Shown here: positions 30,501-36,500 of the stretch, piece after piece
Layout of the letters: every line of letters starts with the position of its first letter
Numbering within the stretch: position 1 is the stretch's first letter
DNA from: Candidatus Omnitrophota bacterium
GTDB taxonomy: Bacteria; Omnitrophota; Gorgyraeia; JABMRG01
Assembly (NCBI GenBank): GCA_042577545.1
Contig: JBHPDT010000002.1
Coordinates: 1,574 to 65,573 of the forward strand
Direction of reading: 5' to 3'
Length of the DNA: 64,000 nt
The notes under the pieces: model-generated
Database searches by the model: none
Told to the model about the DNA's origin: nothing
Seen by the model: only the letters and a program-made list of their open reading frames with translations
Position numbers and translations under genes: made by a program

Positions 30501-33500
30501 GTCATACGCTCGCCAAAGTAATATAACATTTGAAGATGTGTTTTAATCGCTTCATCATTATCACTAGAGCTATATCTGCACTGAATCATATTTCTTATAA
30601 AATCAAAATGATTATAAAGATCTATTTCGTTATATTGTTCTAAAACAAACCTAACATCAGCAGAATCAATCCTTCTGCTCAAGGAAGCTCCCCACCCGCT
30701 TTGGTTAAGATAATCATGTATTGCAGATACGCACTCGGGCAGAAACCATGCCTCAGTTGTTTTACTCAAGAATAATAAATCAAAATCATAATAGTACTCT
30801 AACAAACACCAACCATTCTCCTCAAAAAGATATCTGCTGCTGCCAACTATCTGCACCTTGATATCAGCGGCGCTATCTGGCATCTCTGTATGCAAATATA
30901 ATCTAGCAATATCGGATAAGAGCTCTTCAAGCAAAGCAATATTAACCTTCCCATCCCGTAGCATTTTATCAACATCAACCTCAATACTGCTAAAATCCAA
31001 TCCGGCTGATGAGGGTTTTGCTCTATGTTCTTCAACAGCTCTTTCCAAAGATTCGATCTCTTGCCTCGCGGAATCTGTTAATCTATCCCAATATAAATCC
31101 TTTATTATTCTTATACTCAACAATACATATAATCCATCATCCTGAATTAGTCTTACAATATTTATTTCAGGTAACTCATACTTATTGAAGTTTTCCACAA
31201 GCTCAGGATCAATATCTCTTAAGTGGGCTCTCATATAATTGGGTCCACGCTTCCTAAAAGCGGCTATAATGGGATTAATAGCTTCTCTGCGTTCCAGCTC
31301 TTCAAATGGGATACATATAGTTCCTTCTGATAATGCGTTTGCTTTATCCATATTCATATTAAAAAGTTTTAGGAAAACTTTTCCATCATGATGTATATAA
31401 GTCTTTAAGCAAAGCATCTCTGGCAAAAGCGGGTGCCGACTTAAACCAACCGTATCATCACCTTCGCTATGATCATATATTCTAACCGCGAACCTTTCAT
31501 CAATAGAAATCTGTTGTTGAGCGCGGCCTATATAAACAAGGGTAAGAAATCCTACGGGTATCTCTATCCTTCTATCCTTATCTATATTAAGAGATAAATG
31601 TTCAGTTTGGCGCGTTTGCGACCGCCATTTCTCAGGATCCATTTCAAGGATTTTATCAATAGGCTTCAAATCAAATTCCGCGAAAAAGTCCTGTTCTGCA
31701 CACATTTGTGCGTTAAGCGCTTCATATGTCTTTCTTGTATTCTTCCAAAGAACAGTTTGAAGATGTAATCCTTGATTAATTTCATCAAGATCTATTAGTC
31801 GCTCTTGATTTTTCACAAATATATTGATAAGATTTGCAACACCTGCGATGTTCGGCGCGTGAAATTCATCAACTGAAGCTGTAATATAAAATGACTTAAT
31901 TCTATTTTTACGATCTCTTCCTTCAATAGCAGATTTGATTCTATTGAGTACATATTCAGCTCGTTTCTTATCGAGCGCCCACAGACAATTGGTCCATATA
32001 GAAACCGTGCAAGCTTTGGTTCTCGCGATAATTTCACAGAGCGTGTCTAAGGTAGCGTCGTTCAGCAGCGGTTCTCCATCACCAGTGAATATTAATGAAT
32101 CTATATCCGTCTCATTCAGAAATCTAATTATATTTTCTGTCTTATCATGAGATGGGCAACGGCTATGATCAATCATAGACGCATCTTCAGGAAGTTTACG
32201 CGAATCACCTAGACAGGACCTACAATTTAAATTGCAGTAACCAGCCAAACAAATTACCGCCTCCGATCTTGGTAGTGATGATACCTCAATATTTGAGCTT
32301 AACATAATCTCTTTTAACCGCTCCTTTGCCTTAGCAGGAGTTACCCCATCAACATCTACCTCAATACTACTAAAATCCAAGCCAGCTGACGAGGGTTTGC
32401 CAGCCAGCTCAGCTGTAAAGACAGATGCGGGCATTGCACCTATAGCATCAATCGGTTTTCTAACAACAAGATGCTCATCCCATGTCTCTTTTTTGCGGGC
32501 ACTAAAGGCGTCTAGGCTTATGATGTTGTTTATACCGAGAACCATCTCTATAGCTTCTTGCAGCCATCCTCTTCTAATAAATTCTACTGTTATCTCATGA
32601 TTTGATGGTAATCTTCCAAAAATATCCTTATAAGGTATGCAAAAGGCTTCTATTTCGTGCCTTAATCCATTTAAACTCTCTGGTTGGTTCTTATAATAAA
32701 GTTTTATTTTCACATAGCGAAGGCTGGTATATAGATATGCACGAAAAGAAGCTGCGGGATAGGTATCTCTTAATTGATTACGGTATATATTGAAATGAGC
32801 GCCTACATACATAAGAGTTTCCATTGCCGCGCTTTGTTCATCATCTTTTGGAAATCTGTTGCTTAATTCTTTAAAATGAGCTGCTACAAGTTTATCAGCT
32901 ACGGCGCTCCTTATCTTTTCATCAAGAGAAAAAAGTAAATATCCTAAGTCGTCATAGTCTTCGTCTTGCCAATCTGCTTGGGCATTATCGCTTAAACGCT
33001 TGAGAATGCTCTTTAGGCTTTGTTTATCCTCTTCTATCTTTAGTCCGATCTGCTTTCTGAGTTCTTCTCTTCTTTTAGGGTCTGTAATATAAATATCCAG
33101 GAGTGAATACAGAACCCTTGAAGGAACGTTTCTTAAAAGCATCCTAAACCTTACATAATCTTTTTCGTTATCCGAAAGTTTCTTTTTGGATTCTGGGAGG
33201 CCTAGTTTGTATTCTAACATAGAATCAAAGCCCTGCCTCATAGCATCAATATTTATAATAAATCTCACAATGTCTTTATTTGAGACTGCGAAATCCTTAT
33301 GGGATGCTCTTAAATCAAGCAATTTTGCTGAATATTCCTCTATCTCATTTTGTTTTCTTGAGCTGTGAAGTATAAGAGCTATATGGGTACCCTCTGTGAT
33401 GCCAAGCTTCTTAAGGGAGGCTATGAGCTTTTCTATCTCATCCTGTTTTCTTGAGCTGTTCAGTATAGGAGCTATATGAGCGCCTTCTCTTATGCCGTGG

Positions 33501-36500
33501 ATTTTAAGAGATGCTATGAGCTCTTCTATCTCACCCTGTTTTCTTGAACTTTGAAGTATAAGGGCTATGTAAGTACCCTCTGTGATGCCGAGTTTATCAA
33601 GAGAGGCTATAAGTGTCTCTATCTCATCCTGTTTTCTTGAACTGTTCAGTATAAGAGCTATATGATAGCCTTCTCTTATGCCAAGGTCTTTAAGAGAGGT
33701 TATGAGCTTTTTTATCTCACTCTGTTTTCTTGAGCTGCTCAGTATAATAGCTATATGATAGCCTTCTGCTACTCCAAGATCTTTAAGAGTTGTTATGAGT
33801 TTTTCTATCTCATGCTGTTTTCTTGCGCTTTGAAGTATAAGGGCTATGTGGATTCCTTCTCTTATGCCATGGGCCCTAATGGATACTATGAGTTCTTCTA
33901 TCTCATCCTGTTTTCTTGAGCTTTGAAGTATAGGAACCATATGAGCGACTTCTCTTATGCCAAGTTTTTTAAGAGAGACTATGAGTTTTTCTATCTCATC
34001 CTGTTTTCTTGAGCTTTGAAGTATGCGGGCTATATGCGTGCCTTCTCTTATGCCTTGGTTTTTAAGAGATGGTATGATTTTCTCTATCTCATCCTGTTTT
34101 CTTGAGCTTTGAAGTATAGAAGCTATAGCGCCTTCTCTTATGCCTTGGTTTTTAAGATATGCTATGAGTTTCTCTATCTCATTCTGTTTTCTTGAGCTGT
34201 GAAGTATAGGAGCTATGTGAGCGGCTTCTCTTATGCCAATGTCTTTAAGAGATGATATAAGCTTCTCTATCTCATCCTGTTTTCTTGAGCTTTGAAGTAT
34301 AAGAGCTATGTGAGCGCCCTCTCTTATGTCTTGGTTTTTAAGATACGCTATGAGTTTCTCTATCTCATCCTGCTTTCTTGAGCTTTGAAGTATGGGAGTT
34401 ATGTGAGCGCCCTCTGTAATGCCGAGTTTTTTAAGGGAGACTATGAGTTTTTCTATCTCATCCTCTTCTCTTGAGCTTTGAAGTATGCGGGCTATATGGG
34501 TGATTTCTCTTATGTCTTGGTTTTTAAGATACGCTATGAGTTTCTCTATCTCATCCTGCTTTCTTGAGCTTTGAAGTATGCGGGCTATATGAGCGTCTTC
34601 TCTTATGTCCTGGGCTTTAAGGAAGGTTATGAGTTTTTCTATCTCATCCTGCTTTCTTGAGCTTTGAAGTATAAGGGCTATATGAGCGCCTTCTCTTATG
34701 CCTTGGTTTTTAAGGGATGCTATTAGCTTCTCTATCTTATCCTGTTTTCTTGAGCTTTGAAGTATGGGAGTTATGTGGGCGCCCTCTGTAATGCCGAGTT
34801 TTTTAAGGGAAACTATGAGTTTTTCTATCTCATCCTGTTCTCTTGAGCTTTTTAGTATAGAGGCTATATGGGTACCTTTTATGCCAAACTTTTTAAGAGA
34901 AGCTATGATCTTTTCTATCTCATTCTGTTCTCTTGAGCTTTGAAGTATAAGGGCTATGTGAGAGCCCTTAAAACAATATGCCTTCTTTTTTTCTTTTACG
35001 TTACTTAAAAAAATCAGCATATCCAGTTTATCTGGTAATTTTTTTAAGCGAGCTATCTTTGCGGCTTGCTTTTCTGCAAATAGACTCATCTCCCCTCTTT
35101 TAACAGTAAGCAGTATGGCCTCTACTCTTGGTGTAATATGCTTTCTCCTTACTCTTTTACCATCAACACTATTCAATAATTGTCTTATTTCTGCGATTGC
35201 CACAGCACCTATAGTACCTGAAGGATAGGGCTCAGCTGTACCAGAACTCCTTAGACTAGGGCCTCCCATTCTTCTTAATTGAACCGATGATGTAGTCTTG
35301 GTTCTTTGAACACTTTGCATACCACCTTTTCTTGCTCTCCCCTCCTCGTTGAGCAATTGCCTGTATTCTAAGATTGTATCAGCACCTATATCTCCAGCTG
35401 ATGAGGCCTTTTCCCCTACTAACCCATCTTCCGGCGAATCTAAGCCCTCTAGCAGCCATGGGACATTGGTTTTCATGATATCAAGTAATCCATTGAAATC
35501 ATTACCAGGGTCGGCGCTTAAAACTTTCTCGAGCAACTCTGATACTTCCTCATCGCCCTTTAAATCAGCAACAAGCCTGGATAATGCAGCCTCATCATTG
35601 CGAACCTGCAGATATCGATCTTTATAGTTCATATAAGTACTACGCTGACCGAAGTAATACAACATTTGAATGTAGACCTTAGCTATTTTAAAATTATCAG
35701 AAGATTCATATCTGCACAGAATAAGATTTCTTAAAATTCTATAATGCCATCTAGAGCCTCCCTCTCCATCTTCCTCCAAGAGAAATCCAATGCCGGTATA
35801 ATTGATATCTTTAGCCAGTAAGGTTCCCCAGCTGCTTTGGTCAAGGTAATCGCATATTGCAGACACAAAATGAACCACTTCAATAGTCAAAAGCACCCTC
35901 TCCTTATAACTAGACCGCTCAGGGCCTTTGGCCATAAACAATAAATCAATATCATGATCTGGATCTAGTATACACCAGCCATTCTCCTGAAAAAGATACC
36001 TGCTGCTGACAACTATCTGCACCCTTACATCATAATTCTTATCAGGAAATTTCTTACCTAAATATAACCTGATTATATCGTTAAGCAGTTTCTCAAAGAG
36101 AGCAATATTTATCTTACCATCCCTAAGCAGCCCACCGACATCAACCTTAATACTGTTAAAATCTACCCTAGATAATAAGGCCTTTGTCACTGATACCTCA
36201 AGTATCTTTGAAGCCTGGGCATCTGTAACACCGGTTTTTTGCGCAACCTTTAATTGTTCTGACTTAAGTTCGCAAGTCTCAATTTGCAGTTTAGCCTTAT
36301 CAGTATAATGCCGCACGCGTACTTCATCAAAGAACTGACGCGTAACATCAGGCTTTACAGTCGCATCTCCCGCATCAGCTAGTTCTTTGAGCTGGGGATT
36401 TACATATGTAAGCAACCAGGTATCAGGATCCTCGATTATGCTCTCTTGATCAACACTACGCCTATAGTGGGGATCTTTTTGTGATTTTACAACAAAATAG

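Follow-up and report, generated by a model that had tools for sequence, protein, structure and literature searches.

We analysed a stretch of 64,000 nucleotides from a Candidatus Omnitrophota bacterium (assembly GCA_042577545.1, contig JBHPDT010000002.1, positions 1,574 to 65,573), hereafter the window, and found in it an 18-unit, in-frame tandem array of a 31-residue repeat that is followed by a putative sigma-70-like domain. The repeat is predicted to belong to the TALE/mTERF structural class, with mTERF as its nearest sequence family, and appears to be a full member of neither. We give an even chance to the reading that the array is a solenoid that targets nucleic acid and is joined to a module that docks on RNA polymerase. 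The array is encoded on the minus strand, within one uninterrupted open reading frame (ORF) of 9,945 nucleotides; its immediate context is as follows (positions are those of the window).

27557..37501, minus strand: giant ORF of 3314 residues, equal to MFC1806826.1 if the start is Met5
32381..35392, minus strand: cassette segment, residues 704-1707, between two SSAG linkers
34961..35194, minus strand: conserved leader (IAEIRQLLNSVDGKRVRRKHITPRVEAILLTVKRGEMSLFAEKQAAKIARLKKLPDKLDMLIFL...), residues ~770-847, compared by eye
33293..34960, minus strand: repeat array, residues 848-1403, 18 units
32402..33349, minus strand: type A C-terminal domain, residues 1385-1700, predicted all-helical and sigma-70-like (regions ~1.2-3.1)
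32447..32746 (approximate), minus strand: stretch resembling sigma-70 regions 2.4-3.1 (SFRAYLYTSLRYV ... GRLPSNHEITVEF ... ISLDA), residues ~1586-1685

Tandem Repeats Finder returned a single array at 33339-34966 (period 93, 17.6 copies, 79% matches, score 1742), and unit boundaries were set by anchoring on I-L-x-S-[SA]-R. Sixteen of the 18 units are 31 residues (93 bp) long, whereas units 1 (residues 848-877) and 9 (residues 1095-1124) have 30 residues (90 bp); unit 18, the last, is degenerate and grades into the next domain. The array is in frame because all unit spacings are multiples of three. At period 31 the mean BLOSUM62 self-score was +2.69, compared with about −0.2 at other periods (row P0008). 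An earlier reading of the window from its letters alone (the sequence-only reading) had reported an in-frame 93-bp array of about 18 units, which is genuine, and its consensus, HIA(L/R)ILQSSRKQDEIEKLI(A/V)SLK(N/K)(Q/L)GI(R/T)EGA, is correct. The coordinates it gave, 33345-35010, hold to within ~50 nucleotides, but 34961-35010 is leader and lies outside any unit. That reading mentioned neither the strand nor the polyprotein-like ORF of 3314 residues, nor the sigma-like domain that comes right after the array.

The units had also been called near-identical at the DNA level, which they are not. Their pairwise identity averages 77% (range 53–91%), and the longest exact repeat within the array is 75 nucleotides. 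Differences between units lie mostly at third codon positions (1209, compared with 712 at first and 659 at second positions), which points to old copies under purifying selection with no recent expansion. Such an array does not look like an obvious substrate for slippage or assembly collapse. Variable copy number and mis-assembly, both suggested earlier, find no echo among related arrays, whose unit counts are equal across independent assemblies. Between P0003 and the ORF of L002, assembled independently of each other, there are five substitutions and no indels over 1090 residues, and members of the P0010 cluster from different samples have identical arrays. An apparent length difference of 31 residues (one unit) in the P0010 cluster proved to be a start-codon difference and involves no copy-number variation. 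A short-read assembly artefact, in the array itself or in its number of units, is extremely improbable. The array is a tandem repeat in a metagenome-assembled genome, and that of the relative L005 is broken by a stop or frameshift near 4026-4089; against an artefact stand the divergence of the units, the short longest exact repeat, the frame open across the whole 9,945 nucleotides, the absence of indels between two assemblies of one relative, and a strict 31-residue period common to 16 independent loci.

Conservation along the unit was computed over 83 units from seven proteins. Near-invariant positions are A3, I5, L6, S8, S9, R10, E14, I15, L22, G26 and I27; the variable ones are 4, 7, 11-13, 16-17, 20-21, 24, 30 and 31. 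Within the window array, the counts of nonsynonymous to synonymous pairs reach 107:6 at position 4, 69:0 at positions 7 and 13, 107:10 at position 24 and 75:0 at position 28, while differences at framework positions 6, 8, 16, 27 and 29 are mostly or only synonymous. The pattern is that of a fixed scaffold carrying unit-specific surface residues. For an origin of the variable positions by a diversity-generating retroelement, no reverse transcriptase or template repeat was seen near the array, though no dedicated search was made.

To describe the fold, we used an AlphaFold2 model of eight units, built on an alignment of eight-unit windows from the window protein and three homologues. The model has a predicted local distance difference test score (pLDDT) of 93.4 and a predicted template modelling score (pTM) of 0.81. 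Each unit comprises an 8-residue helix (G-x-H-I-A-x-I-L), a loop (x-S-S-R-K), a 13-residue helix and a second loop (L-G-I-x-E). Consistent with the two-helix unit proposed earlier, DSSP assigned two helices (8 and 13 residues) per unit, with a short 3-10 turn possible in the L-G-I-x-E loop. The predicted arrangement, of high confidence, is an alpha/alpha superhelix of stacked units.

The top natural match of this model in a Foldseek search of the PDB was the TAL effector dHax3, mostly in DNA-bound entries (E 7e-3, template modelling score (TM) 0.53-0.58), with a root mean square deviation of ~6 Å over ~260 columns. Structures of mTERF proteins were matched with probability 1.0 and TM 0.46-0.53 overall, including MTERF4 (7o9k, E 0.045), 4fp9_B (TM 0.52) and MTERF1 (3mva and 5crk, TM 0.50). 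The lowest E-value of all, 5.1e-4, belongs to a designed nanocage, and designed left-handed alpha/alpha toroids are also among the matches. At the sequence level, the Pfam family mTERF (PF02536) scored above its gathering score (44.1 bits, cutoff 23.1, E 1.6e-11). This match consists of four stretches, with segment residues 402-610 aligned to profile positions 29-235 of 314. The same family matched all 16 eight-unit windows from four proteins (best E 9e-14); P0001 and P0005, searched as whole proteins, gave no Pfam mTERF match. Several other Pfam families with low E-values on the array, among them ALS_ss_C, WSD and Exog_C, were rejected as repeat-accumulation artefacts, with no single stretch significant.

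The period of 31 lies outside the canonical lengths of TPR, TALE and PPR repeats, as had been stated before. Setting TALE aside on period alone was premature, however, given that dHax3 is the top natural structural match. The unit shares with TALE repeats the order short helix, loop, long helix, and the family shares with Xanthomonas TALEs, RipTALs, Bats/BurrH, MOrTL1/2 and STAR the occurrence of long tandem arrays in bacterial, seemingly exported proteins. In contrast to the 33-35 residues of TALE repeats, the period here is 31 (30 in two units). There is no significant sequence similarity; TAL_effector is absent from the Pfam outputs and no TALE appeared in the PDB sequence searches. Where TALE repeats carry a hypervariable di-residue, the S8, S9, R10 loop is invariant and variation extends over ~10 positions. 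A different recognition code is possible, with polymorphic positions 4 and 7, almost purely nonsynonymous in their differences, flanking the loop. The fusion partners differ as well: sigma-like here, a eukaryotic activation domain and nuclear localisation signal in TALEs.

The likeness to mTERF lies in the ~30-residue helical repeats, the predicted superhelical and putatively nucleic-acid-binding solenoid, the Pfam score above gathering and the Foldseek probability of 1.0. The mTERF pattern reads 'LG...P.lL..s', which the unit stretch L-x-x-L-G-I-x-x-x-x-I-A-(P)-I-L-x-S-S resembles. Proline stands at unit position 4, the probable equivalent of the mTERF proline (register not fixed), in 5 of 18 units, and leucine is commoner there. 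Hydrophobic pairs seven residues apart occur in the unit (I15/L22 and L18/L25), again with the register relative to the mTERF motif not fixed. In mTERF proteins, the ~30-residue motif forms three helices, with a conserved proline at position 8 and hydrophobic residues at 11, 18 and 25, and the motifs are non-tandem and interspersed through the protein (PMC11417379); the repeats are degenerate (PMC4005652). The units of the array are, by contrast, strictly tandem, well conserved, 31 residues long and of two helices rather than three (DSSP on the AlphaFold2 model). They carry the probable equivalent of the signature proline in only 5 of 18 cases and are fused to a sigma-like domain; and mTERFs are eukaryotic organelle factors, whereas this family is bacterial.

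The nearest precedent for the proposed function comes from the prokaryotic proteins pTERF1 and pTERF2, whose tandem mTERF-like repeats bind specific double-stranded DNA (dsDNA) with nanomolar dissociation constants (Hu et al. 2024, PMC11417379). Both they and the array consist of tandem mTERF-like repeats from uncultured bacteria and share the same Pfam motif. The pTERFs have three helices per unit and 3-11 units and come mainly from Bacillota (PMC11417379). A comparison by description sets 31 residues here against a pTERF period of 35, as read from the pTERF1 cluster identifier TR_35_C32_2. Neither a sigma-like fusion nor a polyprotein context is reported for pTERFs (PMC11417379), and the available parts of that paper and its supplements do not mention Omnitrophota. 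Taken together, the fold appears to be of a known kind (mTERF, TALE, pTERF). The placement within the TALE/mTERF class short of full membership in either family reflects the 31-residue period, the two helices, the probable signature proline in only 5 of 18 units and the lack of a hypervariable di-residue.

The sequence-only reading had instead guessed at a HEAT- or PBS-lyase-like solenoid. In the corresponding alternative, the array would be a protein-binding scaffold (for RNA polymerase, a host protein or the neighbouring modules) and not a nucleic-acid reader, which we regard as unlikely. The array does share two helices and the 31-residue period with alphaRep and PBS-type HEAT-like repeats, and PDB sequence searches (phmmer, hmmsearch) matched, weakly yet consistently, only designed alphaRep and HEAT-like proteins (E 3.6e-6 to 6.8e-6). 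Variation over many surface positions, as in binding scaffolds, and a per-unit net charge near zero would also suit a scaffold. However, Pfam HEAT_2 stayed below threshold on the array (E 0.013, 16 bits, cutoff 27.7), and HEAT_PBS is not among the families listed in its Pfam output. None of the 50 best Foldseek PDB matches of the pLDDT-93 model is a HEAT or alphaRep structure, although the PDB holds many. The helices of HEAT repeats are roughly equal in length, and lengths of 8 and 13 suit TALE and mTERF better; Pfam mTERF, moreover, matched every one of the 16 windows. What stands of the earlier guess is thus the shared period and the alphaRep sequence matches.

The second half of the proposed cassette is the domain after the array. 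Its type A form has 32 members by profile search of 1.84 billion representative proteins. A type A profile of 23 sequences, compared with PDB sequences, gave ~50 matches to the sigma-70 family in regions 2.4-3.1, the top one being Thermus aquaticus SigA (E 3.2e-6, profile positions 194-292). The match includes the block 'IP.H ... GREP..EIA ... SLE.PIG', and the profile aligns to the window's own RpoD at residues 391-493. Supporting this assignment, the 50 best Foldseek PDB matches of the AlphaFold2 model of the domain (pLDDT 85.4) are all sigma factors, among them 1ku2 (T. aquaticus sigma-A, regions 1.2-3.1), at modest E-values. Type A thus shares with the sigma-70 family regions 2.4-3.1, including the '...SLD/E.P.G' signature, and a predicted fold that retrieves sigma factors only among its 50 best matches. 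It differs in its extreme divergence, the lack of region 4, its 3314-residue host with a signal-peptide-like start, and an array in place of region 1.1.

The link to sigma factors emerged only once the profile had been deepened to 23 sequences. Alignments of three and four C-terminal sequences, compared by hhalign with RpoD and with each other, gave probabilities below 1%; the three-sequence type A profile returned only noise from the PDB, and single-sequence Pfam searches of the C-terminal domains returned nothing. Pfam Sigma70_r3 matched weakly in 3 of the 23 type A members (E at least 0.005). A second form, type B, is carried by P0002, P0003, P0004, L002, L004, L005, L009 and L011-L013. It occupies the position of type A and looks region-4-like, with a weak match to the sigma factor 6pfv (E 0.0019, region 3.2/4.1) and an alignment in the equivalent position to two annotated ECF sigmas. 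The array thus appears to be consistently fused to a divergent module derived from sigma-70, judging by profiles and predicted folds.

This arrangement recurs across a small family. A word-indexed search of 5.8 billion proteins found six relatives only, and a degenerate two-unit DNA pattern found five loci in 185,579 GTDB species genomes and five more in a metagenome collection; of the GTDB loci, three carry the label Omnitrophota, one Planctomycetia and one Ca. Elulimicrobium. The repeat family is rare and mostly found in Omnitrophota. Wherever the array is not truncated, a type A or type B domain comes after it, as seen over 6 database proteins, 5 GTDB loci and 5 metagenome loci. Unit number ranges from 3 to 19, and relatives keep the strict 31-residue period. 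In the window, the cassette runs from a basic low-complexity stretch through the conserved leader and the array to the sigma-like domain. A leader of ~80 residues precedes the array in every family member and may form its N-terminal cap. In P0007 (2314 residues), the whole cassette of leader, array and sigma-like domain is present three times in succession (14, 5 and 12 units), parted by SSSAG, PSSSG and SSSSG linkers. No conserved partner genes were seen in the genomic neighbourhoods of P0001 and P0005. A minimal form occurs in L005 (3274-5372), from a Lac Pavin Omnitrophota metagenome-assembled genome, which comprises a signal peptide, leader, array and type B domain; the interruption of its array could mark a pseudogene or an assembly error.

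On these grounds, we propose that the leader, the 18-unit solenoid and the sigma-70-like domain form a three-part targeting cassette. The solenoid would bind nucleic acid, most likely dsDNA along a groove, for which pTERF is the precedent. Residues I5, L6, S8, S9, R10, I15, I19, L22, G26 and I27 would form the scaffold and contact the backbone, and polymorphic positions 4, 7 and perhaps 13, beside the loop, would set the specificity of each unit. If the sigma-like domain docks on the RNA polymerase core, the cassette could draw polymerase to the sites that the array selects, redirect it to them or sequester it there. More speculatively, the cassette may be one bead of an exported, linker-cleaved protein of 3314 residues.

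Several observations weigh against this proposal. Concerning the fold, two of the five AlphaFold2 models of the array were less confident (pLDDT 70-75), the structural matches are modest (E 1e-2 to 1e-1, TM 0.45-0.58), and solenoids of like helix lengths can converge. Repeats inflate profile scores, and clearly spurious Pfam families also reach low E-values; the PDB sequence matches, as described, are to designed alphaRep/HEAT-like proteins only. Concerning a code, variation is spread over ~10 positions with no TALE-like di-residue and an invariant loop, and the net charge per unit, by sequence count, is ~ +1 in the window array, while that of P0003 is slightly negative. The sigma-like domain has diverged strongly, with a global TM of ~0.2 and the WW of region 2.4 missing, and no Pfam Sigma70 model passes threshold on the window sequence. 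Type A also ends ~35 residues past the region 3 signature, at the SSAG linker, and so is without region 4. Finally, a signal peptide fits poorly with a sigma factor that works in the cytoplasm of the cell that makes it, and delivery into another cell is pure inference.

Two further alternatives bear on the same evidence. The array might bind RNA, like MTERF3/4 and several plant mTERFs, and tether the cassette to a transcript or ribosomal RNA. In its favour are mTERF as the nearest sequence family, MTERF4 as the top mTERF structure by E-value, solved on the mitoribosome large subunit with NSUN4 (7o9k, 4fp9), and a methyltransferase in the same polyprotein. Nevertheless we hold RNA binding to be distinctly unlikely: TM is highest for TAL effector entries, which are mostly DNA-bound, the domain fused to the array resembles sigma factors, which are DNA- and polymerase-associated, and the prokaryotic tandem mTERF-like proteins tested to date bind dsDNA.

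Alternatively, the array could serve merely as an inert spacer or stalk, or it could be autoinhibitory and cover the sigma-like domain in the manner of region 1.1. It lies N-terminal to the sigma2-like domain, at the place of region 1.1 in primary sigma factors; Pfam Sigma70_r1_1 (region 1.1) gave partial in-phase matches in 5 of 16 array windows (best E 5.3e-8); and arrays in the family vary widely in size, from 3 to 19 units. Yet about ten framework positions under strong purifying selection, together with diversified positions, are unexpected for a spacer, and three differing arrays in P0007 suggest distinct specificities. The Sigma70_r1_1 match spans only the common motif 'helix followed by L-x-x-G-I', which it probably reflects. 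We accordingly place a spacer or autoinhibitory role among the improbable explanations and retain the nucleic-acid-targeting cassette as the preferred reading.

The host protein of the cassette is annotated in MFC1806826.1 as 'methyltransferase domain-containing protein [Candidatus Omnitrophota bacterium]'. Seven K[PAS]SSAG linkers coincide exactly with its module boundaries, and LDF[SN]SIEV follows four of the seven. SSAG occurs seven times in the giant ORF, compared with none in ~15,500 residues of other window proteins. The module order is an N-terminal unknown domain, methyltransferase and module X, the cassette, radical SAM, X, inositol-monophosphatase-like, X and X. The features outside the cassette are listed below.

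37421..37501, minus strand: signal-peptide-like N-terminus (MNTIMRYLLHKLKLILVVSLLANQSAG/V), read from the sequence
36854..36865, minus strand: linker 1, KSSSAG (SSAG at residues 213-216)
35393..36853, minus strand: segment 2, S-adenosylmethionine (SAM)-dependent methyltransferase (Pfam Methyltransf_11/25/23) and module X copy 1
35393..35404, minus strand: linker 2, KASSAG (residues 700-703)
32381..32392, minus strand: linker 3, KPSSAG (residues 1704-1707), followed by LDFSSIEVD
31001..32380, minus strand: segment 4, radical-SAM-type 4Fe-4S enzyme (Pfam Fer4_12, E 3.6e-8)
31001..31012, minus strand: linker 4, KPSSAG (residues 2164-2167)
30257..30268, minus strand: linker 5, KASSAG (residues 2412-2415)
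29186..30256, minus strand: segment 6, inositol-monophosphatase-like (Pfam Inositol_P, E 4.8e-6, 26.7 bits, under the 27-bit cutoff)
29186..29197, minus strand: linker 6, KPSSAG (residues 2769-2772)
28403..28414, minus strand: linker 7, KASSAG (residues 3030-3033)
35393-36139, 30257-31000, 28403-29185 and 27560-28402, minus strand: module X copies 1-4

The four copies of module X are paralogues of ~250 residues, 42-56% identical, with the motif GSSRYLFE..GWCLL..D.D. Searches of Pfam, NCBIfam, PADLOC and the word-indexed protein collection, and of the PDB with a paralogue profile, gave no match for it; we presume, on impression only, a reminiscence of the nucleotidyltransferase G-S...D-x-D signature. 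The radical-SAM module matched PADLOC pVip (E 4e-6) and NCBIfam viperin_w_prok (E 2.9e-5), both far below cutoffs and over the radical-SAM core only. The methyltransferase module matched PADLOC 'mad2' (E 3.5e-15). Along with the phosphatase-like match, these viperin-type and mad2 matches hint that the protein as a whole has to do with nucleotides or transcription.

The signal-peptide-like start of the giant protein has a basic n-region, a hydrophobic core of 9-10 residues and a c-region ending in QSAG, and the N-termini of relatives are similar. The QSAG of the c-region resembles the linkers. The C-terminus of the protein (...ISAAA) aligns with the SSAG linkers, and those of relatives are alike (small-x-A-A: IASAA, ISQAA, INASA, ISHAA). 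Relatives also carry similar linkers, with PAAAG in one of seemingly high-GC composition. A '(A/T)LRP(P/L/M)A' motif stands 10-25 residues past the signal-peptide-like segment in the window protein, P0005, P0007, P0009, P0010, P0011 and L005. A few residues after it comes an acidic/hydrophobic 'D(I/L)(G/E)(F/L)', which resembles the sequence after SSAG; the motif may be a propeptide or sorting motif. These features suggest that the linkers serve as a dedicated processing or sorting signal of a polyprotein, and the giant protein is probably exported and then cut at the linkers, though this is the more speculative part. The literature searched contained no description of SSAG-type polyprotein processing.

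Published reports describe a host-dependent way of life for Omnitrophota, and the modules of the giant protein may for this reason act in a target cell. An extended version of the proposal holds the cassettes to be programmable sigma-like factors, in which the array would pick the DNA site and the sigma2-sigma3 (or sigma4) module would capture polymerase. Exported in the SSAG polyprotein with nucleotide-modifying enzymes and released by proteolysis, they would reprogramme or shut down the transcription of prey or host. We consider this version distinctly unlikely. If its programmable reading held true, it would provide a bacterial-target analogue of TAL effectors and new designable DNA-binding repeats.

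Modular helical repeats that read nucleic acids (TALE, PUF, PPR, STAR, pTERF) are scarce and make useful engineering scaffolds. If the nucleic-acid-targeting reading is true, they would be joined by a family with a strict period of 31 residues whose natural arrays run to 19 units, and multi-array proteins such as P0007, with its three differing arrays, would offer a route to a recognition code. Repeats of the mTERF type were long held to be eukaryote-specific, and a second independent bacterial lineage would bear on their origin. We found no description of a fusion between a repeat array and a sigma-like domain; should the fusion prove functional, it would steer RNA polymerase in a new manner. 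Likewise, a strict 31-residue family, its bias to Omnitrophota and the SSAG polyprotein were not found in the literature searched, which yielded no publication joining mTERF with Omnitrophica, and its papers on Omnitrophota giant proteins leave mTERF, TALE, solenoid, tandem repeat, polyprotein and linker unmentioned. The SSAG-linked, signal-peptide-bearing architecture suggests that Omnitrophota, a phylum with almost no cultured members, have a system for processing or export.

The surroundings of the giant ORF in the window hold the following features.

37992-39044, minus strand: IS110-family transposase (NCBIfam E 6.7e-43)
39332-39417, intergenic between the IS110 transposase and rpoD: tandem repeat, period 43, 2 copies, 86% matches
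26422-26934, minus strand: ECF-type sigma-70 gene, ~620 nucleotides downstream of the giant ORF
25337-26194, minus strand: ORF of 285 residues with no family match, following the ECF-type sigma-70 gene

The 285-residue ORF is possibly an anti-sigma factor. At the P0001 locus, a small Sigma70_r4 protein lies ~3 kb away (L008 6808-7416); the closeness of sigma genes to array proteins may be a coincidence. The IS110 transposase lies ~490 nucleotides upstream of the start of the giant ORF, between it and rpoD/dnaG.

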